The notes beneath the pieces were generated by a model that did no database searches, was not told the origin of the DNA, and worked only from the letters and a program-made list of their open reading frames with translations. 41,426 nucleotides of DNA from a virus. Lineage: Duplodnaviria > Heunggongvirae > Uroviricota > Caudoviricetes. Of this stretch, positions 1,612-41,098 are shown piece by piece (the stretch's first letter is position 1; every line of letters starts with the position of its first letter). Made by a program: the position numbers and the translations under genes. The DNA is taken from IMG/VR virus record IMGVR_UViG_2711768022_000004; one strand, given 5' to 3'.

Positions 1612-2207
1612 GTAAGCGTGCAGCAAGAACCGTATTGACGGGAATGTGTTATTCAGTCGGCAGTGCTACGCGCCAGGGGAGCAGTTCGCCGACCCGGTTT
1701 ATCGGCCAGTCGGCTATGACGTCAAGGACATAGCGGAGGTAGCTTTCTGGCTCCACTCCGTTCAGTTTGCACGTCCCGATCAGGCTGTACAGCAGCGCTC
1801 CCCGCTCTCCTCCATGATCCGAACCGAAGAACAGGTAGTTTTTGCGGCCCAGACTGACCATCCGCAACGCATTTTCAGCGATGTTATTGTCCGCCTCAGC
1901 CCAGCCATCATCTGCATAGTACGTCAGCGCCGGCCACTGGTTCAGGGCATATGCGAACGCTTTCGCCAGTTCTGAGTGTCGCGACAGGGTTTTCATCTTT
2001 TCACGCAGCCAGCTTTCCAGGGATTTCAGCAGCGGTTTCGTTTTCAACTGACGTTCGGCAAGGCGCTGTTTCAGCAGGAAGATGTCGTCAGAAGAGATGT
2101 CGTTCATAAGCCCGTATTTTACCGGGCTTATTCTGTGACAACCAGGATAAAGAGATTTACAGCATGGTCAGGGAGGTCAGCAGCCGCTTAGGCTGTCTAT
2201 AGCGCGG
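1612..2207 (-). mobile_element. IS66-family insertion sequence, right-hand portion (terminal repeat plus 3' end of transposase gene)
   Basis: GTAAGCG at 1612-1618 resembles IS66-family terminal repeats (from memory); transposase C-terminal fragment 1649-2107; frame open upstream to about 2167. Confidence 0.55.
1649..2107 (-). pseudogene. IS66-family transposase (TnpC/orf3) C-terminal fragment; about 1 kb of 5' coding sequence absent
   Basis: 152-aa translation contains IAENALRMVSLGRKNYLFFGSDHGGERGALLYSLIGTCKLNGVEPESYLRYVLDVIADWPINRVGELLPW, matching the conserved C-terminus of IS66 transposases; no N-terminal part in the window. Confidence 0.75.
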
Positions 2208-2213
2208 CGATTT

Positions 2214-2280
2214 TTTTGATACCGATTTGCATTTCATTTGATACCGCTGAAAAACGCCGATACGCAACTTATTTGATACT
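2214..2280. repeat. prophage right-end transposase-binding repeats (attR-like)
   Basis: Three direct copies of the core TTTTGATACC / ATTTGATACC / ATTTGATACT at 2214-2223, 2236-2245, 2271-2280, in inverted orientation relative to the copies at the other end. Confidence 0.55.
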
Positions 2281-2325
2281 AAATCGGCGCTTTTCTTTTG
2301 AGTTTTAGAATGAGTTTTTAAGCGT

Positions 2326-3063
2326 TCATTCACTCTCTTTCAAACCAGTTTTAACTGTTTGTGGTTTTGGGTAAGGCTGGACTTTGAATAGCTTTGTGTT
2401 AAGGCGTTTTCTGGCTCTCTTGTCCAGAAACCGGATGTAACGAAACTGACGGAATTTATGAACACTGGCTCTGTCGATATTAGCCCGCAGATGTTCACCT
2501 CGCTGTCCTCCTCGTTTGATTGCATTCTTGCAAATCTCGTGATACCACTCGCCATCAAGTTCATAGAATGTTGTTTCATGACTGCCTACATAATCAAAAT
2601 TGCTTGCCTGGTACACGACACCAAGACAGCCACAACGCTCATCTGCAAACGACTGAACCCACTGCACCTGCGGATAAAGTTGTCTGATTAGTTTGAGCGC
2701 GTAACTGATTGCCCTTGATTCGGAGTTTCTCGGCATACAGTCATGCAGCCATAACCGGTTAAGCTCCATATATTCGCGGTTCTGCGTGCCAGTTACGACG
2801 CGTGCACCATTGTTTGGATTAAGGGCATAACCCCATTGCATTACGCCAACCAGCTCCCGTTCTGAAAATATGCCCAGATGAAGGTAGGAATTATTTACGA
2901 AACGATGGCTGTAATGTTTATTGACGACGACCAGCCGGGCCAGCCAGCAACTTATTGTCTCAACCCGTAACTCACGGGAGCCATAACCGACGATATTGTC
3001 GTTATAGTGAATAAGTTCAGGCGTGCTGATGATACGGGATGTAACTTGCTTTCTGTTCCCCAC
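2326..3063 (-). CDS. mom: Mom-like DNA modification protein (start uncertain; GTG at 3063 assumed, frame open to 3258)
   Basis: Immediately downstream of and overlapping a Com-like zinc-finger ORF at the prophage right end, as in Mu; about 245 aa if started at GTG 3061-3063. Confidence 0.6.
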
Positions 3064-3217
3064 GACAGGATTTCCTTGTGTATGTGGGGTGCTCTGTGGC
3101 GCTCTGAGATGTGATTTGATTGAGGGTTTTACAGCGCGGACATTTAACTTCCAGATAACTGAAGCTGGCTCGTGCCAGTAGCTTGTTACAATGTCGGCAC
3201 CGTATGTTTCGATACAT
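3017..3217 (-). CDS. com: Com-like zinc-finger translational activator of mom
   Basis: [35 protein letters not shown] has the C-x2-C...C-x2-C pattern and resembles Mu Com (IRCKNCNKLL...RCPRCK); AGGAGG Shine-Dalgarno upstream of ATG 3215-3217. Confidence 0.7.
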
Positions 3218-3260
3218 GGCCGCATAACCTCCTGCTTTGTTGTTGATATCTTTATCACTC

Positions 3261-3350
3261 AATCGATCGACAAAAACGATCGATTTGATTTATTTAATTG
3301 ATACAACAAATAACACGAAATGTCATTAGCGAAAATTTATGAGTTTGATC
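3261..3350 (-). promoter_or_regulatory. candidate mom-operon promoter/regulatory region with GATC cluster
   Basis: Perfect 9-bp inverted repeat AATCGATCG(N7)CGATCGATT at 3261-3285 carrying two GATC sites (3265, 3278), third GATC at 3347; lies 45-130 nt upstream of com start. Confidence 0.35.
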
Positions 3351-3473
3351 ACTAATTTTAAACGGTGCTGTAACGCATAAGTGCTGAATGATTGTACATT
3401 TGAATACCGCAAAGCAAACAAATCAACTAATTTATAGAAGTCAATTGGTTAATTGCCAGCGTAAGAGGCTGCT

Positions 3474-3767
3474 ATGGACAATCATGTAACGACGAGAAAT
3501 CGAAAAATGATTGAAAATGCGGAAATCTATAATGATTATTTTTCCGATTATTCAGATGCCTGCAAATACAGTTCGAGTGCGGGAGAGTTCATATGCTTCA
3601 ACTTTTTTATTAAATCTTATGTTTTTCCTCCACAGCAAGAAGATGGAGGTGTGCCACCTCCTGAAATCACTTTGCACCGTATAGCCTCCGTCTCAATGAT
3701 GGAGCAACAGGCTAATGAGCTGTATAGCATTCTGGGAACGATTCTACAAAAGCGTGAATCGGACTAA
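3474..3767 (+). CDS. hypothetical protein (cargo gene, opposite strand to the operon)
   Basis: 97-aa ORF with AAGAGG Shine-Dalgarno; embedded in AT-rich DNA between com and the esterase-like gene. Confidence 0.45.
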   Translation: MDNHVTTRNRKMIENAEIYNDYFSDYSDACKYSSSAGEFICFNFFIKSYVFPPQQEDGGVPPPEITLHRIASVSMMEQQANELYSILGTILQKRESD

Positions 3768-3934
3768 TGATACCGGTTCATTTGCCTGCCCGGATGGGGA
3801 AGCAGGATTGACTGCTCCATAAGCAGCTATATTTCTGAATACGAAATACTATCCAGCGATTACATATGGCTGGATAGCGGCAAAGATGTTTTCATTAGTG
3901 TCAAACCGGCAGAGGACACCACCGGTTTGTATTG

Positions 3935-4189
3935 TTACATCATGGTACTGTCAGTTCCGGGCTGAGCCGGGTCTGGTTGCTCTGGCTGCGCGTCGGTTTT
4001 CGGCTCATTATCAGCATCACTGGCCGCAACTGCTGGCCCAATAAGTTTTGCCAGCACTTCATCAACGTAAGTGTCGATTTGTGCCTCAAAATCCTTGCGG
4101 ACCTGCGCTTTCAGCAACTTATTTACTTCACCGGAATACAGTGCCTGTTTTACCAGGTCTTCAGTGACGGTGCCTTTAATTTCTGGCAT
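3935..4189 (-). CDS. hypothetical small protein with acidic Pro/Gln-rich C-terminus
   Basis: 84-aa ORF with strong GGAGG Shine-Dalgarno (reverse complement of 4195-4199). Confidence 0.5.
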   Translation of the reverse strand: MPEIKGTVTEDLVKQALYSGEVNKLLKAQVRKDFEAQIDTYVDEVLAKLIGPAVAASDADNEPKTDAQPEQPDPAQPGTDSTMM

Positions 4190-4224
4190 GTATATCCTCC
4201 TTATGCGGGAATAAAGCCCTGCAA

Positions 4225-4407
4225 TCAGGGCTGGGTCGGGTCTTTTGGGAGCGGAGTTACCTGCGCTGTTTTACTGAGTTTTTCAGCTGCTGCGTCCTCA
4301 ATTTTGCGGCGAACATAATTTCTGATGGCCTTATAACCACCACTCACCAGATATAACGCACATACTGCCGTGCAGAAATACAATAAAATAAGCTGTAAAA
4401 ATGTCAT
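4225..4407 (-). CDS. small membrane protein (single predicted transmembrane helix followed by a charged tail)
   Basis: 60 aa from ATG 4405-4407: MTFLQLILLYFCTAVCALYLVSGGYKAIRNYVRRKIEDAAAEKL; GGGAGGG Shine-Dalgarno upstream. Confidence 0.5.
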   Translation of the reverse strand: MTFLQLILLYFCTAVCALYLVSGGYKAIRNYVRRKIEDAAAEKLSKTAQVTPLPKDPTQP

Positions 4408-4422
4408 TATCCCTCCCAATTA

Positions 4423-4449
4423 TTGACATGGTGTTGACACCGGTAATAT
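4423..4449 (+). promoter_or_regulatory. candidate sigma70-like promoter on the plus strand
   Basis: TTGACA at 4423-4428 (second TTGACA at 4434-4439) and TAATAT at 4444-4449; spacing 15 bp, suboptimal. Confidence 0.3.
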
Positions 4450-4503
4450 CTGTTAGGTAAAAAGGTGCACTGCATTTTTTGCTTTGGATATAACGATCTT
4501 TTT

Positions 4504-4544
4504 GCCGCCGGTTTCTTGTTTTCCCTTACCGGCGGCATTTTTTT
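4504..4544 (+). terminator. rho-independent terminator (plus-strand orientation)
   Basis: 9-bp GC-rich stem GCCGCCGGT / ACCGGCGGC around a 15-nt loop, followed by T7 run at 4538-4544. Confidence 0.6.
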
Positions 4545-4551
4545 ATCCTGC

Positions 4552-6606
4552 TTACGCGTTATTCACTTCCACCACGATACTGTCAATCAGTACCGGGTAA
4601 GTCGCATTTTTAGTGATATCGGTCACGCGCAACTTGTCTGCCGTAAACGTGCCGACCGGAGACTGCGACAGCATGAATGGTGTCCCGTCCTTACCATCAA
4701 TGACCGGCGTCACCTCAATACTGTTGTTACCGGCAAAACGGAAGCCCAGCGTATGCCATTCGTTATTAAATGCGCCGAATGACCCCAGCTTCGTGTTCTG
4801 CGCCGTGTTTCCTTTGTGATACATCACGTTAAGGTCTGTGGCATCGCTCTGTACGTAGAACGATGCCAGCAGGTTATGACCGGCATTTCCTTCCAGAGTA
4901 ACCCCTTGCGGCAGGGCAGAAACCGGCCAGTACAGCGCCAGTGCGTACTGATTAGCCGTAAGCGCGCCATCGAGTTTAAAACGACAACTGACAAGACCAC
5001 CTTTACCCAGCAGGTCCGCACCATTACCAGCATCATGCTCAAGGTACCAGGGGGCTCTTCCTGTTTCCTTGGTCAGTTTCATTGCCTTACCCCCGCTGGC
5101 TCCGGCATCATCCACGATTTGAGCCTTGCCACCTCCGGCAGCCCAACCCTGTGGTGTCAACCGTCCTTCAGACTCAGATGCCCGGTAAGCAAATAGCGTA
5201 CTCATCGTCGTGGTGTCTGCGGGTGGCGTGGACGGTTTTGATGGTGTATCAGGTGACGGCTTCTCATCCGGTGGTGTCACGGTCTGCCCACGCATCAGTT
5301 CAGCCGTGCGCCCTGCATGGAGCATAATAGCTGAGGCCAGACGGTCTGAAATGACGCCCCTGCGTGCCCATGAGCTGAAATGGCTGTCACGCTGTGTCGA
5401 AACAAAACTGCCCTGGGTTCGGGATGCTGCACCGTAATACCCGACAGCCACAATATCCGGGTCTTCCGCCGGAGCATTCGTTGGCGTGCTCTGTCCATTC
5501 TCATCCGTCAGGAACGGTACAAAGAAAATTTTCTGTGCTTCCTTGCCTTTGTAGCCACCGTATACTGCCTCATATTTATCGGTGCCAGCGTTTTTCCAGT
5601 AATACGTGGTATCACCGCAAATCCACGGCACCGTGGTGGCATTTCCACTCACGCACTGCGCAGCAAGCGGAGCCAGGTCAGTTCTGAACTGCTGAACCAT
5701 GGCCGTGAATAAACTATTATGCTGCTGGCTTCCTGAGGCAAGGTCTGCCTCTCCCTGCATCCAGACCACAGCCAGAAGTTTGTTTTTCGGGTTTTTCGCC
5801 AGCGCGACTTTGGTGCGGCTTACCAGGTCCTGATACAGAGGTTTACCGGCCCCCCAGCGTGAAGAATCAGCGGAAGCACCGCTGGCCTCACTGAATGAGC
5901 CGTCGGCTCCAGTGGTGAATGCTGACCCGCCACGACAACAGGGCACCAGAAGTATCCCGGCATTCTGTGGGATATAGGGAAGCAGTTTTTTGGCAATATG
6001 CAACCCCTGACCGACAGTCCCGTACTGGCCTTTTGCCAGATCAGCTTTCGGGTGGTTTATCCCGCTCATATCCTGAACATCATGCAGGCAGTGGTCTGCC
6101 GGAATGATGTCGTTGTATGTACACGACGTACCGTTGGGCGTTACCGTACTGCGGCGTGCCAGTTGCTTAATGCGTGGGTCCGGGCGGTCAAACGAATCCG
6201 GTAACGGCAGCCCCTCGCCGTAGGCCATGCCATTTGACTGACCCGCGAGAATGACAACAAAGTAATATTCCGGCTCTGAACTGCTGCCATTCGTGCTACC
6301 GGAAGGCCCGGCGTTATCCGGTGCATTCCAGTCGGAGGGCGTGAGCGTTCCGGCCACGTCAGATGTGATTGGAATGATGCCAGTCACGCCTGAACTGGTG
6401 ATTTCTGCACTGGGATTACCGGATACCGGCATTACCCATAATGGCTCTTTCGTGCTGAAGCGGATCACGCAGTCTGCGAAGGTGATCCCCCCTTTATTAC
6501 CCGAAGGGCGGAAAGGGCTTTCAATAAATGCCACCGTGCCACCGGCAACCTTGACTGAAAACTCTCCGGGCATGGCGGAGAGCATTTTCCACTTGGAGTC
6601 TGACAT
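4552..6606 (-). CDS. SASA/SGNH-type carbohydrate esterase-like protein (sialate O-acetylesterase-like), prophage cargo
   Basis: 684 aa; VVILAGQSNGMAYGEG resembles the GQSNM motif of sialate O-acetylesterase-type domains; no obvious signal peptide; sits between invertase and com-mom. Confidence 0.55.
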   Translation of the reverse strand: MSDSKWKMLSAMPGEFSVKVAGGTVAFIESPFRPSGNKGGITFADCVIRFSTKEPLWVMPVSGNPSAEITSSGVTGIIPITSDVAGTLTPSDWNAPDNAGPSGSTNGSSSEPEYYFVVILAGQSNGMAYGEGLPLPDSFDRPDPRIKQLARRSTVTPNGTSCTYNDIIPADHCLHDVQDMSGINHPKADLAKGQYGTVGQGLHIAKKLLPYIPQNAGILLVPCCRGGSAFTTGADGSFSEASGASADSSRWGAGKPLYQDLVSRTKVALAKNPKNKLLAVVWMQGEADLASGSQQHNSLFTAMVQQFRTDLAPLAAQCVSGNATTVPWICGDTTYYWKNAGTDKYEAVYGGYKGKEAQKIFFVPFLTDENGQSTPTNAPAEDPDIVAVGYYGAASRTQGSFVSTQRDSHFSSWARRGVISDRLASAIMLHAGRTAELMRGQTVTPPDEKPSPDTPSKPSTPPADTTTMSTLFAYRASESEGRLTPQGWAAGGGKAQIVDDAGASGGKAMKLTKETGRAPWYLEHDAGNGADLLGKGGLVSCRFKLDGALTANQYALALYWPVSALPQGVTLEGNAGHNLLASFYVQSDATDLNVMYHKGNTAQNTKLGSFGAFNNEWHTLGFRFAGNNSIEVTPVIDGKDGTPFMLSQSPVGTFTADKLRVTDITKNATYPVLIDSIVVEVNNA

Positions 6607-6682
6607 CGTCTTTTCTGCCTGTTTCTGAATTAAACAGAGTCAGAATAGCGACCGCTGAAAAATATGTGTTTTGCGGAAATTC

Positions 6683-6711
6683 AAAAAAGCGTCACGGTAC
6701 TTTTGGTGACG
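6683..6711 (-). terminator. rho-independent terminator overlapping the invertase stop codon
   Basis: On the minus strand, stem CGTCAC / GTGACG with 10-nt loop followed by CTTTTTT; invertase stop codon lies inside the stem. Confidence 0.5.
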
Positions 6712-7258
6712 GAGCTGGTGAGGCAGGAAAATAACGATAAAGGGTGGAAAGGCCAATATCAAATATCAGTGCGATTTGTTTACGGGACTCGCCATTAGCC
6801 AGCAAACGGGCGATTTGCTCCCGCTCTTTCTCTGTCAGTTTCTGAGGTCTGCCGCCATGACGCCCCTGAGCACGGGCAGCAGCAAGACCCGCGCGTGTAC
6901 GTTCAATAATGAGTTCCCGCTCCATTTCCGCCAGCGCGCCCATTATATGGAAAAAGAAACGTCCCATGGGAGTGGATGTATCAATATTGTCCGTAATGCT
7001 GCGGAAGTTAACGCCGCGTTGCCGGAGTTCTTCTGTTAAAAGGACAAGGTGCTGCATACTGCGTCCAAGGCGATCCAGTTTCCAGACCAGCAGGGTATCC
7101 CCTGGCCGGAGTCGCTTTAATGCGCGTTTAAGTCCGGGACGCTCCCTTGTCTTACCGCTTATTCTGTCTTCGAAAAACAGCTCACATCCTGCACATTCCA
7201 GCGCATTTCTTTGTAGCGCCGTATTCTGGTCATTTGTTGACACCCTGATATACCCAAT
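6692..7258 (-). CDS. gin: serine DNA invertase (Gin/Pin/Cin/Hin family), 5' end runs into the assembly gap
   Basis: Translation IGYIRVSTNDQNTALQRNAL...GDTLLVWKLDRLGRSMQHL...PMGRFFFHIMGALAEMERELIIERT is near-identical in pattern to Gin; frame continues upstream of the listed GTG start into the N-run. Confidence 0.85.
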   Translation of the reverse strand: MGYIRVSTNDQNTALQRNALECAGCELFFEDRISGKTRERPGLKRALKRLRPGDTLLVWKLDRLGRSMQHLVLLTEELRQRGVNFRSITDNIDTSTPMGRFFFHIMGALAEMERELIIERTRAGLAAARAQGRHGGRPQKLTEKEREQIARLLANGESRKQIALIFDIGLSTLYRYFPASPAPSPKVP

Positions 7259-7488
7259 NNNNNNNNNNNNNNNNNNNNNNNNNNNNNNNNNNNNNNNNNN
7301 NNNNNNNNNNNNNNNNNNNNNNNNNNNNNNNNNNNNNNNNNNNNNNNNNNNNNNNNNNNNNNNNNNNNNNNNNNNNNNNNNNNNNNNNNNNNNNNNNNNN
7401 NNNNNNNNNNNNNNNNNNNNNNNNNNNNNNNNNNNNNNNNNNNNNNNNNNNNNNNNNNNNNNNNNNNNNNNNNNNNNNNNNNNNNNNN
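7259..7488. other. assembly gap (run of 230 N); true length unknown
   Basis: Literal N characters in the sequence. Confidence 0.99.
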
Positions 7489-7489
7489 G

Positions 7490-7660
7490 GGAGCAGAGAA
7501 CAGGCAGGTAATGTACGGTGGGGCATATTACTCTGCGTACGGTAATGTTATGGCAGGCCTGCAGATTGACAGTAAAGTTGATGCTTCAAACGATTTTATA
7601 GCATTCAGACCCCTGCAAAAATTAGTCGGAGGTACATGGATTACGGTATCTCAGTTATAA
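7490..7660 (+). CDS. alternative tail-fibre variable C-terminal segment (Sv'-like), 5' part lost in the gap
   Basis: Plus-strand frame ending ...FRPLQKLVGGTWITVSQL at 7660; ending resembles the C-terminus of the minus-strand fibre (...[10 protein letters not shown]); followed by a tfa gene on the same strand. Confidence 0.6.
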   Translation, partial: GAENRQVMYGGAYYSAYGNVMAGLQIDSKVDASNDFIAFRPLQKLVGGTWITVSQL

Positions 7661-7711
7661 ATAGTCAGTAAATAATATATTTTAAAACAGATTTATTTCC
7701 AGGAGGATTTT

Positions 7712-8233
7712 ATGGAACTAAAAAATATAACCCGTTATTATCCTGAAAATATGCCATATGGTAATAATGTTCAGTATTTCCAGAGTGAAGATGGTAAGGA
7801 TTTCTACGAATCCCTGCCATTATTCACCAAAAAATATAAACTTTGCATAACACCTGACAGCGGCGTTATCTGCTCAATATCACAGGACGCCTCGGCGCTG
7901 TATCCTGCGGGGTTTTCTGTGGTTGAGGTCGATGAACTCCCTGAAGGCACGGATATTTCAGGAAACTGGAAGTTTGATAATGGCATAATCTCCCGTATTC
8001 CGGTTAACTACGCAAGAAAACTGGAAGCAATGCGCCAGTCATATCTTAATCAGGCATATGAAAAAATTAATGACTGGAGAACGGAGCTACAACTGGGCAC
8101 CATCAGCGATGAAGACAGAGCAGCACTTACCCAATGGATGGCATACATCAGTCAGGTGAAGAAAATGGAACTACCCGCCATTAAAACAGAAGCTGAATTT
8201 AACGCCATTAAATGGCCTGAGCAGCCACAGTAA
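7712..8233 (+). CDS. tail-fibre assembly protein (P2 G / Mu U-like)
   Basis: 173 aa; DASALYPAGFSVVEVDELPEG and the C-terminal ISDEDRAALTQWMAYISQV region resemble P2 gpG-type chaperones; AGGAGG Shine-Dalgarno. Confidence 0.8.
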   Translation: MELKNITRYYPENMPYGNNVQYFQSEDGKDFYESLPLFTKKYKLCITPDSGVICSISQDASALYPAGFSVVEVDELPEGTDISGNWKFDNGIISRIPVNYARKLEAMRQSYLNQAYEKINDWRTELQLGTISDEDRAALTQWMAYISQVKKMELPAIKTEAEFNAIKWPEQPQ

Positions 8234-8236
8234 TAA

Positions 8237-8256
8237 AGAAGGCCGGAAGGCCTTCT
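8237..8256. terminator. hairpin between convergent tfa and fibre genes (possible bidirectional terminator)
   Basis: AGAAGGCC-GGAA-GGCCTTCT perfect 8-bp stem in the 31-bp gap between the two stop codons; flanking U-runs are weak. Confidence 0.4.
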
Positions 8257-8264
8257 GAATATCA

Positions 8265-9146
8265 TTATATACTTGCAGCCGTCACCCATGCTCCATTTAA
8301 CAGATACTGCAACGGCCGGTAATACACGCCGCCGACGTTATCTGCCGTATTCTTACCGACATCCTGTACTTTAATTCCGGTAAGAACATTGCCGCCCCCC
8401 AGATTCAGATCCCAGCTTTCCCATGTTCCGGGCATATGTGCGGTCACCGACCCCAGTCTTATGGCGGTTACTGTTCCTGATGAGATAGTGATATCCTGCG
8501 TCCCGTCAAAGGGAACACCATTAATTGTGTGGGCATTTGCCAGCCTGTTCGCGGCAACGGCGGTGCCGTCCGATGGCAGGGCATTCGCCGCCCTGTTTAC
8601 CGTTTCCCGTAAACCGACGTTATCGATAAAAGCCCCTTTATCCGGAATGTCTGCGCCGTTCTGCTCCCTGCGCAGGTAACGGTTATCACCTTCGCTTTTG
8701 CTGTAAACATCCAGATTATTACGGGCGGTTCCCTTATTCTCCAGGTCGGCGAGATTCTGATCCTTCGCCAGGGCATTAACGTCAGCGGGACCAAGACTGT
8801 TTTTTGTGGCAAGCGTCCCCAGACCAAGATAACCACGGGCCAGACGCTGGGCCTCCGCACCGGCATCAGCAATTTCTTTCAGGTTATTTTTCCGGGAAAA
8901 GGCATTCGCAGCGATAATGGCTTTAATGGACAGCGTAAGCTGGTTTAACTGCGCCTTATCCGGCTGAATACTGGCTTCAGCCAGAATATTCAGCAGTTCG
9001 GCCTGGAGAATATTCAGCCAGTCCTGACCAATCCAGCTGATACCTTTTTGTCCGTCACCTTCGGTAAACCAGGTGGTGGTATTACTCTGCGCCGGTGCCA
9101 GCGCAGGCATATTCGCCACGCCGGAATTATTATCAACATGAAACAT
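8265..9146 (-). CDS. tail fibre protein (constant N-terminal part plus currently expressed variable C-terminal part)
   Basis: 293 aa; N-terminus [18 protein letters not shown]...[30 protein letters not shown] typical of Mu S / P2 H-type fibres; contains the gix-like site. Confidence 0.8.
8604..8629. other. gix/hix-like crossover site for the serine invertase, inside the fibre gene
   Basis: TTCCCGTAAACC-GA-CGTTATCGATAA: two 12-bp half-sites in inverted orientation around a 2-bp core, resembling gix (TTCCTGTAAACCGAGGTTTTGGATAA, from memory); falls at fibre codon about 173. Confidence 0.55.
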
Positions 9147-22559: not shown

Positions 22560-22736
22560 ACCGGCAGCATAAGCCGGGTATTTTTGGGGCTGGTTTTGCG
22601 GGACTTCAGAAAGTGCTGACAGGGGGGGAATGAGAAAGGCGCTTCACGCAGATTTTAAAGCCCGTTAAATACAGGTTAGAAAATCACGACACGCGCCTGA
22701 AGGGGGTAAGGTAATACGTTTGCATACCTTAAACCA

Positions 22737-26236: not shown

Positions 26237-27903
26237 TACCAGCCCCCCCGATCAAATTCATGATATGCCTCATCGTCATCACGATAACCGCCCTCCATTG
26301 CCCGCGACCGCTCCTGTAGCGCCTGACAGGCTGATTCATCCAGGATGAAGCCCTCCATGTATGACGCCCGGTTTGCCATACAGAGCGCCACGGCAAAATC
26401 ACCATGGCGGCGGGCGTTCGCAGCCGTTGCGTTCTGGTCCTTCGTGCGCCCCTTGTCGATTTGCGGGATACCATTCACTACCTTCACATGGCGCAAATCA
26501 TCAAGCGTGGTCTGATGGCGGGCGACGAGGATATTCTGATCTTCAAACTCGGCTTTCAGTTTTGGCATCCACTCGCCGTACCACTTCGGCGACAACATCA
26601 CGCAGTCGATGATGTCCGGGCCAAAGGCCAGCAGTGCGGCCTCTGCCAGATAGCCGCCGTTACCGGTGGCGTCGAACGCCGCACCGACCAGCGCCGGAAC
26701 GCGGGTCAGGATGTACATCATCACCTGTTCCTGCTGGGCATACGGCAGGTTGCGCAGCTCCACGCGAAACACCTCGCGCTTTGCCAGGGATTCGGTGATT
26801 TCCAGCAGCACAAAGCAGGACAGGTCACCGGTGCGGGCAAAGTCTTCCCCGAAGCTGAAGCGGGAACGGGGATTTAATTTCTCTAAAAGCGGTTTTAAAT
26901 GTTCTTCACACCAGGTTAAAACTTCCGATTCACGCAGCCATGCGGCACGGCTGATGAAGTTGTCCGGGGCTTCAAACGTCAGAATCGGGATGTCGCGGAT
27001 CATCGCCATTTCAATAAGCGCGTGGGGGATATAGGCACCGCCGGATTTTTTCGGGATACAGCCGTATTCCTCGTCGGCATCCTCACGGGTCGGGGCGTTT
27101 TTGTAGAGATCATCACGCCATTTCTGCTCGCTTTCCGGTGACCATTCCTGATCGGTGACGTAACAGATACGACGGTACAGCCCGTCCGCAATGGCATCAT
27201 CCAGGGTTATGCGGTGGACGCTGTAATCCTTGCGCCCCTCGCGGGCTTCCTGAATGTACTGATTAAACAGATTATCGACGCCGTTATGCGTGGAGATAAT
27301 ACGCACGCGCGCGCCCCACATAGTGAGCGCCATTGCCGCCTTGAGAAGCTCATCCAGTGACTCGTGGAACGCGGCTTCATCAATCACCACATCCCCCTGA
27401 AGGCCGCGCAGGTTTGACGGACGGGAAGACAATGCCTGAATTTTGAATCCACTGTTCGGAAAGCGGATCATGTAGGTCAAAATTTCTTCTTTTTTATCCC
27501 GATCCCAGAATGTCTGCTCATACACATCAGCATCTGCCAGCTGGTTAAAGGCACGGGAGAACAGCGCGCAGGCAGAAATATATTCCAGCGCCATCTCCTG
27601 CTTTGATCCCACATAAAACACATTGCGGCCACCACGACGCTTCGGTTTTGCAGCAGTAATGACGTTACGCCCGGCTTCCGCCCAGGTAAGACCGGTGCGG
27701 CGGGATTTCTCCGCGATGCAGACCTGACTTTCATCTGCAAACCAGCGGGCCTGATAATCCAGAAACACCGGCATATCACCGGGCAAATCAAGGCTGTCCG
27801 GCACATCCACGCCCAGCAGGGCTTTTTCACCTGACAGATCAATTTTGCGGGGAGGCGTCATTTGCATCAGTGAAGGCGACGTTTCTCTGGCTTTGTTCAT
27901 CAT
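26236..27903 (-). CDS. terminase large subunit
   Basis: 555 aa; position between small-terminase-like gene and portal. Confidence 0.75.
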   Translation of the reverse strand: MMNKARETSPSLMQMTPPRKIDLSGEKALLGVDVPDSLDLPGDMPVFLDYQARWFADESQVCIAEKSRRTGLTWAEAGRNVITAAKPKRRGGRNVFYVGSKQEMALEYISACALFSRAFNQLADADVYEQTFWDRDKKEEILTYMIRFPNSGFKIQALSSRPSNLRGLQGDVVIDEAAFHESLDELLKAAMALTMWGARVRIISTHNGVDNLFNQYIQEAREGRKDYSVHRITLDDAIADGLYRRICYVTDQEWSPESEQKWRDDLYKNAPTREDADEEYGCIPKKSGGAYIPHALIEMAMIRDIPILTFEAPDNFISRAAWLRESEVLTWCEEHLKPLLEKLNPRSRFSFGEDFARTGDLSCFVLLEITESLAKREVFRVELRNLPYAQQEQVMMYILTRVPALVGAAFDATGNGGYLAEAALLAFGPDIIDCVMLSPKWYGEWMPKLKAEFEDQNILVARHQTTLDDLRHVKVVNGIPQIDKGRTKDQNATAANARRHGDFAVALCMANRASYMEGFILDESACQALQERSRAMEGGYRDDDEAYHEFDRGGW

Positions 27904-30760: not shown

Positions 30761-30792
30761 CGTGAGGAAAAGGGGGCAGGATTTGCGGAATA

Positions 30793-31215
30793 TCAGAAAA
30801 GCCGTGGCTGCGTGCGTTCCTGATGCAGGCGACGCTGGTTGCGGATAACGGAGTAAATCTGCGTCTCTGACATCTGGTAGTGGCGGCGCAGGGTTTCAAT
30901 TTTTTCGCCCTGGCTCCAGCGGGAAAAAATTTCATTATTGCGCAGTTCGGTGAAAAGGGATTCACCGACCGGGAGATAATAACCACGCCCGCCCATGTAC
31001 CCGGCCTGTGCGGCTGCAACCTTACGGGCAAGCATTCCCGCCTGAGCAGGTTCAATCCCCTGACGGTGCAGTTCAGCACTGATCACATCAACCAGGTCCC
31101 GCAGCGTGCCGGGCCAGTTCTTTTTCAGCTCATCATCAGGAATATCATCCAGACGGTCAATCAGCGCGTGCAGCTGTTCGCTGTCACCAAACATGCTCAT
31201 CTGTGTTTCAGCCAT
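30793..31215 (-). CDS. mor: Mor/C-family transcriptional activator
   Basis: 140 aa; N-terminus MAETQMSMFGDSEQLHALIDRL resembles Mu Mor (MTEDLFGD...); directly after gemA-like gene. Confidence 0.65.
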   Translation of the reverse strand: MAETQMSMFGDSEQLHALIDRLDDIPDDELKKNWPGTLRDLVDVISAELHRQGIEPAQAGMLARKVAAAQAGYMGGRGYYLPVGESLFTELRNNEIFSRWSQGEKIETLRRHYQMSETQIYSVIRNQRRLHQERTQPRLF

Positions 31216-39810: not shown

Positions 39811-39995
39811 GATTCATCTATCCTAAAAAGTTACGAAATTTGATAACTAAACTTAGTTATCAAGTTTGATATAAGTATTGATCCACTTCTGCTTCATGTA
39901 AAGCAAAAAAAACATCTTTCTTTTGTCTATTGTGGATCAATGGTTGCTGACAACACTAAAAGTTAATAATTTCAAATTGATAGGAAGAAAAGAAA
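39811..39995. promoter_or_regulatory. divergent early promoter/operator region between ner and repressor genes
   Basis: Palindrome TTGATAACTAA-AC-TTAGTTATCAA (39840-39863); inverted pair ATTGATCCAC (39877-39886) / GTGGATCAAT (39932-39941); repeated TTGATA half-sites. Confidence 0.55.
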
Positions 39996-40541
39996 ATGAA
40001 CAAGCAAACAACAACATCTCTTTCTTTTCCTGGTGGTAGAAAAGAAAGCATTGCTGAGCGTCTGAAAAGGCTGATTGGCTCCCGCAGCGTCAGAGCTGCA
40101 GCAAGAGATTGGGGGCTTTCATTTTCAACACTAAACAATTATCTGTCTCGTGGCACTGAGCCATCCTTAAGTGTCGCCCTTCAGATTGCGTCTATCGAAG
40201 GAGTAAGTGTTGAGTGGCTATGTGGATTCAGTGATGCATCACAAGTGAATCGGTGTGAGATCAAGGAAAATCAAGATGAAAGCAAGAAGATAATTATGAC
40301 GATTATCAGCGCACTTGATGAAAAAGACTTAGAGCAGCTATCGAAAAATTTGGTTCTGAATGGAGCCAAGTACTTAGCTCGGTTGTTAGAGCCTGAAAAT
40401 CAAGATCTAATCCGCTTAGAAGGAAGGAAAAGAATAGCTGCATTACAGCTTGAAGGTATGTCTGACGAACGCGTCAGAGAGATTTTGGAAGAAACTGAGA
40501 GAAGTCGCAAATCTAACGCGGTAGAACCAAAAGCGGGTTAA
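39996..40541 (+). CDS. prophage repressor (CI/Mu c-type, N-terminal helix-turn-helix)
   Basis: 181 aa; LKRLIGSRSVRAAARDWGLSFSTLNNYLSRG is a helix-turn-helix; transcribed toward the prophage end, divergent from ner-A-B, as in Mu. Confidence 0.7.
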   Translation: MNKQTTTSLSFPGGRKESIAERLKRLIGSRSVRAAARDWGLSFSTLNNYLSRGTEPSLSVALQIASIEGVSVEWLCGFSDASQVNRCEIKENQDESKKIIMTIISALDEKDLEQLSKNLVLNGAKYLARLLEPENQDLIRLEGRKRIAALQLEGMSDERVREILEETERSRKSNAVEPKAG

Positions 40542-40610: not shown

Positions 40611-40777
40611 CCACAGTATCAAATGAGTTGCCGATTTTATAATAAATGACTAATTATTGCACAATCGGTATCAAATAGACCTTATCCGCACATCTAGCCA
40701 TCACCTGTTTTATTTCAGTATCTTACAGGTGATTTCACCTCCTTTCACTAAACCCCTTGTCGGTATCAAATGATTCA
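40611..40777. repeat. prophage left-end transposase-binding repeats (attL-like)
   Basis: Reverse complements of ATTTGATAC(C/T) at 40615-40624, 40667-40676, 40762-40771; terminus reads TGAATCATTTGATACC inward from 40777. Confidence 0.55.
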
Positions 40778-41098
40778 CCTGGTTATATGTCGCCAGTCGA
40801 TACCTTCCAGCAGCATCGCCAGCTGCGCCTGTGTAAGGAACACTTTGCCATCACGGGCTGACGGCCAGGCGAAGCGCCCACGCTCCAGCCGTTTGGTCAG
40901 GAGGCACAGTCCGTCACTGGTGGACCACAGCAGTTTAACCTGACTGCCGCTGCGGCCCCGGAAAATGAAAACATGGCCGGACATGGGATCGTCTTTCAGC
41001 GCCGTCTGTACTTTCGCAGCCAGGCCGTTGAAGCCATTTCTCATATCGGTGATACCGGCAACCAGCCAAATTTTGATCCCGGAAGGTAACGGGATCAT
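40775..41098 (-). CDS. IS66-family accessory protein TnpB (orf2)
   Basis: MIPLPSGIKIWLVAGITDMRNGFNGLAAKVQ...GSQVKLLWSTSDGLCLLTKRLERGRFAWP matches the conserved IS66 orf2 product. Confidence 0.85.
   Translation of the reverse strand: MIPLPSGIKIWLVAGITDMRNGFNGLAAKVQTALKDDPMSGHVFIFRGRSGSQVKLLWSTSDGLCLLTKRLERGRFAWPSARDGKVFLTQAQLAMLLEGIDWRHITR

Follow-up and report, generated by a model that had tools for sequence, protein, structure and literature searches.

DNA modified by the phage Mu protein Mom withstands many restriction systems, and restriction evasion by com-mom is textbook Mu biology. In Mu, the Com recognition element is 5'-CC(N)2-3GAG-3' in a hairpin loop beside a translation-inhibition hairpin, with the GUG start codon inside the stem of the latter (PMC6483171). 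Residues H48, Y49, R101, S114, D139, and Y149 of Mu Mom are essential for acetyl-CoA binding, iron binding, or activity (PMC7261163). Phages of the Sp18 type encode Mom together with its regulator in the same position as the locus described here (PMC3299994). A related form of methylation-sensitive control is known from the gtr operon of P22, where pairs of GATC sites 13 bp apart lie inside one OxyR half-site; methylation abolishes OxyR binding, and a 13-bp pair within one half-site is sufficient for methylation-sensitive binding (PMC2909390). Whether mom expression is bistable was raised as an open question in the same work (PMC2909390).

The com-mom operon and its prophage

The window, meaning the whole 41,426-nucleotide stretch of viral DNA analysed here, contains an ordinary, previously annotated copy of the phage Mu com-mom operon on its minus strand at 2326-3217 (Table 1). 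Com-mom is a known system, and the exact proteins are already named in RefSeq: Mom is identical to WP_000528246.1 and Com to WP_014334043.1, both PGAP annotations in locus L002. The com and mom CDS boundaries also agree with those assigned by PGAP in an E. coli genome with 99.9% identity over this region. NCBIfam returned no models matching Mom or Com. Gene order, the com-mom overlap, and the right-end position are shared with Mu (Mup54/Mup55, NC_000929), and judged from the sequence both Mu's translational lock and a shortened Dam-methylation-sensitive control site appear to be kept. We consider it very probable that the operon belongs to a complete Mu-like (Sp18-type) prophage and functions as its Mu counterpart does.

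The complete prophage extends from about 40787 to 2198 and is inserted in ISEc8. Its ends are defined by three independent insertions, which at the right end have common sequence up to ...CGCTATA and then diverge; inverted TTTGATACCG repeats mark the left end at 40770 and 40675. The earlier note had placed com-mom at the right end of a prophage, and this was borne out, as the operon stops 128 nt inside the mapped end, beside the terminal transposase-binding repeats, and ISEc8 resumes at 2197. Domain searches identified Mu-transposase, MuB, Mor, GemA, and resolvase (gin invertase) domains typical of a Mu-like transposable prophage, and the Mu-like gene set is full, with repressor, A, B, C, lysozyme, structural genes, and gin. 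Unlike in Mu, gin is not adjacent to com; a block of ~3.4 kb (SASA-esterase/DUF6645, DUF1378, DUF826, and a reverse ORF) lies between them. The surroundings of the prophage consist of mobile-element debris, and the IS element is disrupted.

Similarity to the Mom family, on which the earlier note had staked its reading of the long ORF, is present over the full length of the Pfam Mom profile (PF25680, positions 1-202 of 202, E 7.8e-78, 261.2 bits against a cut-off of 27.1). Residues 5-233 also match residues 4-232 of the solved Mu Mom structure (PDB 8bv8_A, "Methylcarbamoylase mom") with an E of 2.4e-123. Aligned to Mu Mom, the protein is 78% identical and has a 12-residue C-terminal extension. 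All six of the residues essential in Mu are kept, as H50, Y51, R103, S116, D141, and Y151, and each is an invariant column in an alignment of 25 sequences. Given this identity and the intact essential residues, Mom (GNAT fold, with bound iron and acetyl-CoA) would turn adenine in phage DNA into N6-methylcarbamoyl-adenine, which would protect the DNA from many restriction enzymes.

The shorter ORF, described previously as a Com-like zinc finger overlapping the start of mom, matches Pfam Zn_ribbon_Com (PF10122, E 7.5e-13, 48.2 bits, cut-off 22.9) and is 45% identical to Mu Com. It carries a CxxC...CxxC arrangement (C7, C10, C26, C29), lies directly upstream of its target gene, and overlaps mom by 47 nt. 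The GTG at 3061-3063, proposed earlier as the mom start inside com, is the one used by PGAP. It is also the sole candidate start at the expected N-terminal position in the related loci L003, L005, and L009, and a GTG 54-56 codons ahead of an NNSY motif is kept in enteric and related gammaproteobacterial loci. The mom frame is open further through com, giving a 310-aa ORF (3258-2326). This longer form was ruled out by a stop in the 95%-identical L003 that leaves GTG 3063 alone, and it is also contradicted by PGAP, which starts mom at the GTG.

With the prophage sitting inside a disrupted IS element amid mobile-element debris, com-mom could be in decay, with its expression or activity already lost. 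We regard this as highly implausible, since both ORFs are intact, all essential Mom residues and the four Com cysteines are kept, and the prophage retains its full Mu-like gene set. In addition, the best database match to Mom (P0001, 96% identical) represents a 90%-identity cluster of 1318 member sequences.

Table 1 Coordinates of com-mom features in the window
Feature	Coordinates	Strand	Details
Prophage right terminus	2198		...GCGCTATA; ISEc8 sequence from 2197
Prophage right end (attR side)	2198..2325	-	Two CGGTATCAAA repeats at 2246-2237 and 2224-2215
mom	2326..3063	-	GTG start 3063-3061; 245 aa; Mom methylcarbamoylase (GNAT fold)
com	3017..3217	-	ATG 3217-3215, stop 3019-3017; 66 aa; Com zinc-ribbon translational activator
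Translation-inhibition hairpin	3058..3089	-	CCCCAC (3089-3084) pairs with GUGGGG (3063-3058, contains mom GUG)
Predicted Com target	3089..3102	-	Small hairpin GCGC-CACAGA-GCAC; carries CC(N)3GAG at 3099-3092
com Shine-Dalgarno, AGGAGG	3228..3233	-	10 nt ahead of ATG; kept in all window-type variants; read from sequence
Perfect 9+9 inverted repeat	3261..3285	.	AATCGATCG (3261-3269) and CGATCGATT (3277-3285); 7-nt spacer
Best 37-bp match to OxyR tetramer consensus	3266..3302	.	Predicted; repeat half-site and GATC-free half-site ATCAATTAAATAAAT
Third GATC	3347..3350	.	66 nt upstream of repeat; only in window subtype; probably outside switch
Late activator, Mu C homologue (in trans)	30793..31215	-	Pfam Mor, E 6.7e-31

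The start-codon hairpin and the predicted Com target

Like Mu, the window has a mom GTG start in a stem-loop, and a predicted Com target, CC(N)3GAG, immediately precedes this structure on the 5' side. The target motif CCACAGAG aligns with Mu CCUGCGAG, and the small hairpin that carries it aligns with Mu AUGC-CUGCGA-GCAU. Its stem is weaker than that of Mu, with one C-A mismatch, and the stem pairs co-vary among relatives (GCAC/GUGC in L005, GUGC/GCAC in L110).

Folding of the mRNA, which the earlier note had suggested as a way to look for a hairpin sequestering the start, placed the GUG in the 3' arm of a stem homologous to that of Mu. The CCCCAC/GUGGGG stem is present in the minimum-free-energy fold, with the mom start codon base-paired and a Shine-Dalgarno-like AAGGA (3077-3073) in the loop; in the fold of Mu, the homologous stem is CCCAC/GUGGG. 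The loop here is 20 nt, longer than that of Mu. All six stem pairs form in 7/7 enteric loci, among which the outer pair is the only one that co-varies (C-G, U-A, U-G). Beyond these, the start codon, whether GUG, AUG, or UUG, is paired in most of the 26 loci folded, and the partner changes to match it (CAC, CAU, or CAA). This cross-clade covariation runs through a different 5' arm, and 75% of start codons are paired, compared with 20-47% when the partner is slid. RNAalifold run on 24 com-mom junctions across all clades gave no single consensus structure; pairs were thus counted per clade, because the clades use different 5' arms. Other measures discriminate less. The 96 nt folded around the hairpin are not more stable than shuffled sequence (z = -0.23), and helices of at least 7 bp, found for 62% of start codons and 28% of all NTG triplets, are weakly discriminating. 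An Rfam search of the whole window matched no family.

The anatomy of the Com target and the hairpin is directly visible, and its agreement with Mu suggests how Com would act. After translation of com from its ATG at 3217, Com would bind the CC(N)3GAG hairpin (3102-3089) on its own mRNA, directly 5' of the stem-loop at 3089-3058. Binding would open the stem that pairs the mom GUG with CCCCAC, leading to translation of Mom.

The GATC sites and the promoter region

Three GATC sites start upstream of com on the plus strand at 3265, 3278, and 3347, and the first two (3265-3268 and 3278-3281) lie within the perfect inverted repeat, just as described from the sequence earlier. On its own the repeat is not beyond chance: by our estimate, 41 kb of sequence should contain about one perfect inverted repeat of 9 nt with a short loop (41426 x 8 loop sizes / 4^9 = 1.3), and GATC pairs no more than 13 nt apart occur four times in the whole window. 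The significance of the repeat comes instead from the conservation of GATC clusters across loci. Clusters with fixed 18/13-nt spacing are found upstream of com in 10/10 Enterobacterales and Neptunomonas loci but in only ~1/26 other loci, a distribution that appears confined to hosts expected to have Dam. Within this region the block ATCGATCG-N7-CGATCGAT is nearly invariant while the flanks diverge. In alphaproteobacterial loci, CcrM (GANTC) sites, a possible analogue of Dam control, were not enriched upstream of com. Viral contigs with the same repeat and no com also exist (for example L131), where the neighbouring ORFs are uninformative. The repeat additionally scores as a terminator-like hairpin on the plus strand, where it has no obvious role.

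The likeness to Dam-dependent control of mom in Mu that the earlier note saw in these sites holds for the repeat and not for the third GATC. Mu has three GATCs at 18/13-nt spacing upstream of the activator site, and the GATC pair here aligns with Mu GATC II/III at the identical 13-nt spacing; GATC I is absent, its position reading TATC/AATT. The third GATC was ruled out as GATC I by its spacing and by its absence from 95%-identical relatives. It is missing from both L003 and L097-type relatives, whose sequence diverges upstream of about 3322. The L003 relative (WP_000528251.1/WP_001310452.1), which is Sp18-type though not necessarily Sp18, represents the Sp18-type Mu-like prophages of E. coli O157 and relatives. 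Over com-mom and the repeat its DNA is ~95% identical to that of the window, and it shares the short promoter region; upstream of about 3322, a part that includes a divergent gene and the third GATC, it is unrelated.

Outside mom, the repeat most resembles the switch of E. coli agn43 (flu). It is 21/23 identical to the agn43 OxyR/Dam core ATCGATCGTTTATATCGATCGAT, with the shared arrangement ATCGATCGTTT-N3-TCGATCGAT and two GATCs 13 nt apart. In agn43 there is a third GATC 19 nt upstream, the sites lie downstream of the transcription start, and the gene controlled is a host autotransporter. The repeat is predicted, from sequence likeness, to be a methylation-sensitive OxyR half-site. In absolute terms its OxyR consensus score, 13/20, is a weak one; it is also the top score in the window, reached at three sites. 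The Mu site, for which OxyR binding is known from experiment, likewise scores 13, and the score of agn43 is 14. As in P22/Salmonella gtr, the 13-bp GATC pair falls inside a single predicted OxyR half-site partnered by a GATC-free half-site, but gtr has two GATC pairs and three half-sites, giving alternative activating and repressing occupancy (PMC2909390), and one pair is seen here. Based on this homology, we infer that OxyR could not bind when the GATC pair is methylated, and would bind and repress when it is unmethylated.

The modest OxyR score, the presence of only two GATCs, and the chance frequency of such repeats would also suit a repeat that is not an OxyR/Dam switch, being either bound by some phage protein (the late activator, for example) or an inherited relic with no regulatory role after loss of GATC I and the C-box. 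If transcription starts near 3236, the repeat would span -49 to -25, roughly where Mor/C-type activators bind in Mu. However, it has no resemblance to the box common to the three late promoters of this phage, and the same GATC block is kept in phages with Mu-type C-boxes and different flanks. The block is also limited to enteric-type hosts and is nearly identical to the proven agn43 OxyR/Dam site. We therefore think it improbable that the repeat is something other than an OxyR/Dam site.

Taking the repeat as a predicted OxyR/Dam site, its setting differs from that of Mu, for which promoter coordinates were read from the Mu sequence and from statements in PMC3378877. The GATC pair lies 51/64 nt from the com ATG compared with 78/91 nt in Mu (27 nt nearer), leaving an interval between the proximal GATC and the ATG of 47 nt rather than 74 nt. 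Mu has a TTAT-N6-ATAA C-box between the GATCs and the -10, along with a T6 run; the window has neither, and a search upstream of com found no such dyad. The shift of the GATC pair and the missing C-box together indicate that the promoter layout differs from Mu, and without a Mu C-box the predicted OxyR site must fall either on the core promoter or within the leader.

A weak promoter within 3218-3312 would transcribe com-mom late in lytic growth, although a sigma-70 promoter scan had no match on the com strand. The presumed activator is the Mu C homologue, which is 40% identical to Mu C and 28% identical to Mu Mor and, as in Mu, has the lysozyme gene directly downstream. The late-promoter box of the prophage, TGAWNTYCCGCAAAW, is exact at three late promoters. 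Upstream of com it occurs only as a 3-mismatch copy at 3339-3325 (~0.08 expected by chance in this interval), which we judge to be within chance and which is not conserved in relatives. On this basis C is a candidate activator of com-mom, and the transcription start is a predicted one.

One possible though rather unlikely arrangement keeps the same operon and Dam/OxyR logic but moves the promoter upstream of the repeat, so that the OxyR-bound repeat would act as a leader roadblock (+6 to +30), as in agn43 and unlike Mu. Transcription could then begin near 3291 from a -10-like TATCAA at 3303-3298, or arrive by read-through from a C-dependent promoter just after gin (box 6683-6669). The TATCAA is kept in all window-type variants and lies 22 nt after the 3-mismatch late box, the spacing found in the three exact late promoters, but that box has not been kept in L003 or the L097-type relatives. 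Consistent with such a geometry, the three GATCs of agn43 begin at the 5' end annotated for the IsrC transcript and hence downstream of where transcription starts. Read-through would meet no strong minus-strand terminator from 3935 to 3218, but the path contains a convergent plus-strand ORF (3474-3767) and a terminator-like hairpin at 3661-3645. Against a promoter upstream of the repeat, L088, L139, and L005 have good -10 hexamers (TATACT, TATCAT, and TAGATT) 11-18 nt downstream of the proximal GATC. Such hexamers favour a promoter located after the repeat, which would put the GATCs near -24/-37 to -33/-46, like those of gtr. In the window, a start near 3236 would give the pair positions of about -32/-45, which are close to those of GATC4/GATC3 in gtr (-33/-46).

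Two layouts of enteric mom operons

Tentatively, and with more doubt than confidence, we propose that in this Sp18-type lineage the Dam/OxyR site has been reduced to a GATC-pair half-site and a GATC-free half-site and has shifted, so that it now covers the core promoter (GATCs at ~-32/-45) or falls in the leader, a geometry of the gtr/agn43 kind rather than that of Mu Pmom. If this is true, OxyR would be in direct competition with RNA polymerase or with the late activator. Expression of mom, and hence the restriction resistance of progeny phage, could then show bistability or phase variation from one lysogen lineage to the next. No mom is known to be phase-variable.

What is modestly new here is comparative, in that two enteric mom layouts can be described. 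The Mu-type layout has three GATCs, then the C-box, then the promoter. The short layout has a GATC pair abutting the promoter and no Mu C-box, and resembles the phase-variable gtr and agn43 switches, which would make it a useful natural variant in which to examine bistability of mom expression. Since Mom-modified DNA resists restriction, an intact com-mom would give this transposable prophage a wider host range among E. coli populations.

Identity and setting of com and mom

A Mu-like prophage lies complete within the window, on its minus strand. The earlier note had proposed a com-mom module with a GATC-bearing inverted repeat at 2326-3350, and both ORFs, the repeat and the three GATC sites are all present at the positions it gave, the two frames sharing 47 nt. 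The long ORF is a Mom family member: it covers the Pfam Mom profile from end to end (E 7.8e-78), hits the solved structure 8bv8 ('Methylcarbamoylase mom') at E 2.4e-123, and shows 78% identity to Mu Mom when 25 sequences are aligned. The short ORF matches Pfam Zn_ribbon_Com (E 7.5e-13), is 45% identical to Mu Com, and contains two CxxC pairs in its translation, including the sequence KCPRCK. In Mu Mom, alanine at H48, Y49, R101, S114, D139 or Y149 impairs modification or the binding of acetyl-CoA or iron (PMC7261163). The corresponding residues H50, Y51, R103, S116, D141 and Y151 are present here and invariant in the 25 sequences. The catalytic residues and zinc ligands of Mom and Com are intact.

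Features of the prophage and its com-mom region
Feature	Position	Strand	Remarks
HTH repressor	39996-40541	plus	
MuA-like transposase	39577-37490	minus	
MuB	37416-36475	minus	
GemA			between MuB and Mor/C-family activator in gene order
Mor/C-family activator	31215-30793	minus	40% identical to Mu C, 28% to Mor; followed by lysozyme gene, then structural genes
TGAWNTYCCGCAAAW box	30781-30795	minus	before lysozyme gene
TGAWNTYCCGCAAAW box	22594-22608	minus	before protease-like gene
Tail-fibre assembly gene	7712-8233	reverse orientation	
Gin-type invertase	7243-6692	minus	
TGAWNTYCCGCAAAW box	6669-6683	minus	before DUF6645 gene just after gin
SASA-esterase/DUF6645 protein	6606-4552	minus	gin-com block
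DUF1378	4419-4225	minus	gin-com block
DUF826	4189-3935	minus	gin-com block
97-aa ORF without family	3474-3767	reverse	gin-com block
GATC sites	3265, 3278, 3347 (starts)		
Candidate -10 TATCAA	3303-3298		
Inverted repeat, AATCGATCG + CGATCGATT	3261-3269 + 3277-3285		perfect 9+9, 7-nt spacer; holds first two GATCs
Candidate -10 TATCAA	3248-3243		TATCAT or CATCAA in relatives
com	ATG 3217 to stop 3017	minus	66 aa
mom	GTG 3063-3061, end 2326	minus	245-aa frame

The DNA is about 71-72% similar to Mu, D108, SfMu and Yersinia Mu-like phages over 650 nt. The 1.4-kb query is covered to at least 80% in 29 RefSeq E. coli genomes. In the closest (99.9% identity), the PGAP CDS boundaries are exactly those of com and mom here, the names are 'Com family...' and 'Mom family adenine methylcarbamoylation protein', and neither protein differs from its counterpart in the window. 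The best database match to Mom (96% identical) represents a 90%-identity cluster of 1318 member sequences. Sp18-type Mu-like phages carry Mom and its regulator at the same position (PMC3299994). This com-mom is a known system, and its exact proteins are already annotated; on the whole, the reading given in the earlier note is supported.

The prophage right terminus, ...GCGCTATA, is at 2198, as set by three independent insertions diverging beyond it, and mom therefore ends 128 nt inside it (115 nt in Mu), in agreement with the right-end placement made earlier. ISEc8 restarts at 2197, and the left junction is 40788/40787. The termini are TATA...TATA, unlike TG...CA, and TTTGATACCG repeats (40770, 40675) mirror CGGTATCAAA (2246, 2224); these repeats are probably transposase-binding sites. 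Insertion was near the 3' end of ISEc8 tnpB (40787-40861, 2053-2197). At the junctions just 4 nt of ISEc8 (GACA) are shared between the two sides, whereas Mu typically duplicates 5 bp. Downstream of the prophage, the ISEc8 transposase gene (1607-2107) has an internal deletion, with the reference jumping from 2645 to 3710; its 3' part is only 86% identical, and a 152-aa fusion ORF remains (1649-2107). Past the IS remnant, a 390-aa ORF (423-1595, minus) with a prophage tail-fibre N-terminal domain (Pfam E 7.3e-49) probably belongs to another prophage.

Gin abuts com in Mu, whereas here a block of about 3.4 kb (3474-6683) separates them. Its esterase-DUF1378-DUF826 trio may be akin to the nanS-p cassette found in Stx lambdoid phages. 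The invertase and reversed tail-fibre assembly gene form a G-segment-like invertible region (6692-8268) with an imperfect palindrome at 8233-8268. A 15-nt inverted repeat, AAATTTGATAACTAA/TTAGTTATCAAGTTT (39836-39867; 93% complementary, 2-nt gap), probably an operator, sits in the early control region, with the repressor on one side and the transposase operon on the other.

The GATC repeat and its relatives

The inverted repeat alone is not beyond chance: about one is expected per 41 kb, and the window has four GATC pairs at most 13 nt apart. In the multiple alignment, the block ATCGATCG-N7-(C/A)GATC(G/A)AT is almost invariant amid diverged flanks, and on this basis the repeat corresponds to Mu GATC II and III. 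At least two GATCs lie upstream of com in all 10 Enterobacterales and Neptunomonas loci (0.3-1.1 expected), and in roughly 1 of 26 loci from Desulfovibrio, alphaproteobacteria and Pseudomonas. Counted from the com ATG, they are at -109, -91 and -78 in Mu, -98, -67 and -54 in Edwardsiella, and -133, -64 and -51 in the window; four other Enterobacterales (L006, L007, L019, L048) have triads with 18/13 or 19/13 spacing, and two loci (L009, L011) have two GATCs 18 nt apart. The likeness to Dam control in Mu that was suggested earlier extends, by homology, to the repeat's pair, and the third site is probably no part of such a switch: the window has no GATC at the Mu GATC I position, and GATC 3347, 66 nt upstream of the repeat, is missing in 95%-identical relatives, which diverge upstream of about 3322.

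The core ATCGATCGTTTTTGTCGATCGAT and GATC II-III of the OxyR/Dam switch of E. coli agn43 agree at 21 of 23 positions. When scored on the OxyR tetramer consensus, site 3266-3302 reaches 13/20, the top score in the window (shared by three sites in all), compared with 13 for the experimentally bound Mu site and 14 for agn43. In the gtr switch of P22, a GATC pair with 13-bp spacing falls inside a single OxyR half-site, the partner half-site is GATC-free, and Dam methylation abolishes OxyR binding (PMC2909390); two GATCs per half-site are thus a known sufficient arrangement. The GATC-pair block is conserved and is homologous to proven OxyR/Dam sites.

Twenty-nine viral contigs among L089-L144 have a palindromic GATC pair, ATCGATCG-N7-CGATCGAT, without a recognisable com downstream, and in several (e.g. 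L093, L098, L111, L112, L128) a third GATC lies at a distance of 18-20 nt. Such sites may serve other phage genes as OxyR/Dam-type switches; in the high-GC contigs the match is likely due to chance. Read on the plus strand, 3261-3295 (the repeat, then TGATTTATTT) scores as intrinsic-terminator-like, antisense to com, with no obvious role.

Candidate promoter layouts upstream of com

The proximal GATC is 47 nt from the com ATG, compared with 74 nt in Mu, and the interval lacks both the TTAT-N6-ATAA C-box and the T-run. Three clear late promoters of the prophage share TGAWNTYCCGCAAAW, followed 22-23 nt on by a TAnnCT hexamer. Unlike the Mu C-box in sequence, TGAWNTYCCGCAAAW probably serves this phage as its late-activator box; it recurs with one mismatch inside the terminase gene (26459-26473). 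Upstream of com it occurs only as a 3-mismatch copy (3339-3325), which is within chance expectation and unconserved in relatives, and a promoter scan found no sigma-70-like promoter on the com strand. com-mom might also be transcribed by read-through from the late promoter that follows gin.

Across 15 distinct window-type and related variants from viral contigs, TTGTTGTATCAATTAAA..., the repeat and ATCA(A/T)CAACAAAGCAGGAGG are conserved, and the 5-6 nt directly past the repeat vary. Two candidate -10 hexamers can be placed. That at 3248-3243 would put the start near 3236 and the GATCs near -32/-45, as in gtr; that at 3303-3298 would put the start near 3291 and the repeat at +6 to +30, as in agn43. 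The start near 3236 is favoured because distant short-type relatives (L088, L139 and the Edwardsiella locus) have good -10 hexamers 11-18 nt past the proximal GATC.

Predicted translational control of mom and the proposed mechanism

Mu, the window and five further loci (enteric or related) have a GTG 54-56 codons ahead of the conserved NNSY motif. The earlier note's GTG start inside com is borne out by this placement, by the PGAP boundaries, and by L009, the Edwardsiella locus and a 95%-identical relative, where GTG is the sole candidate start at the expected N-terminal position. In the predicted RNA fold, CCCCAC (3089-3084) pairs with GUGGGG (3063-3058), including the mom GUG, and a Shine-Dalgarno-like AAGGA falls in the loop; the homologous Mu stem is CCCAC/GUGGG. 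In an alignment of 24 junctions, all six pairs form in 7/7 enteric sequences, with the outermost C-G changing to U-A or U-G. The fold is no more stable than shuffled sequence, so support for the start-sequestering hairpin, which the note had also anticipated, is comparative rather than thermodynamic.

In non-enteric loci the start codon is again sequestered, by a segment upstream of a conserved GAGC. The partner tracks the start codon (CAC/GUG, CAU/AUG, CAA/UUG), and 75% of start/partner cells are paired, compared with 20-47% with the partner slid. In L021-L071 (Desulfovibrio, alphaproteobacteria), the AUG, GUG or UUG start pairs with GCCAY upstream of GAGC, not with a downstream CCCAC. This would be an alternative translation-inhibition hairpin architecture, in which start codon and partner co-vary.

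Com recognises CC(N)2-3GAG in a hairpin loop beside the translation-inhibition structure, whose stem holds the GUG start (PMC6483171). Directly 5' of the window stem, CCACAGAG (3099-3092) fits this motif and aligns with Mu CCUGCGAG. The small motif hairpin is weaker here than in Mu and has one C-A mismatch. The mom start codon lies inside a positionally conserved stem, with the Com motif in place. No com-like zinc-ribbon ORF turned up in a pattern search of the DNA upstream of the Mom homologues in nine loci from Symbiopectobacterium, Sphingomonas, Yersinia and Serratia (L004, L008, L010, L014-L018, L054); there, either com is divergent or mom is under different regulation.

PMC3378877 summarises how Dam, OxyR, C and Com control com-mom in Mu. 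By analogy with Mu, agn43 and gtr, OxyR would bind the unmethylated repeat and repress com-mom, Dam methylation would relieve this repression, and the late activator would be needed. Com would then open the stem holding the mom start, and Mom would make N6-methylcarbamoyl-adenine. Only the regulatory region offers a new angle: in this lineage it is shortened to a two-GATC form, whose geometry is more like that of gtr or agn43 than that of Mu Pmom.
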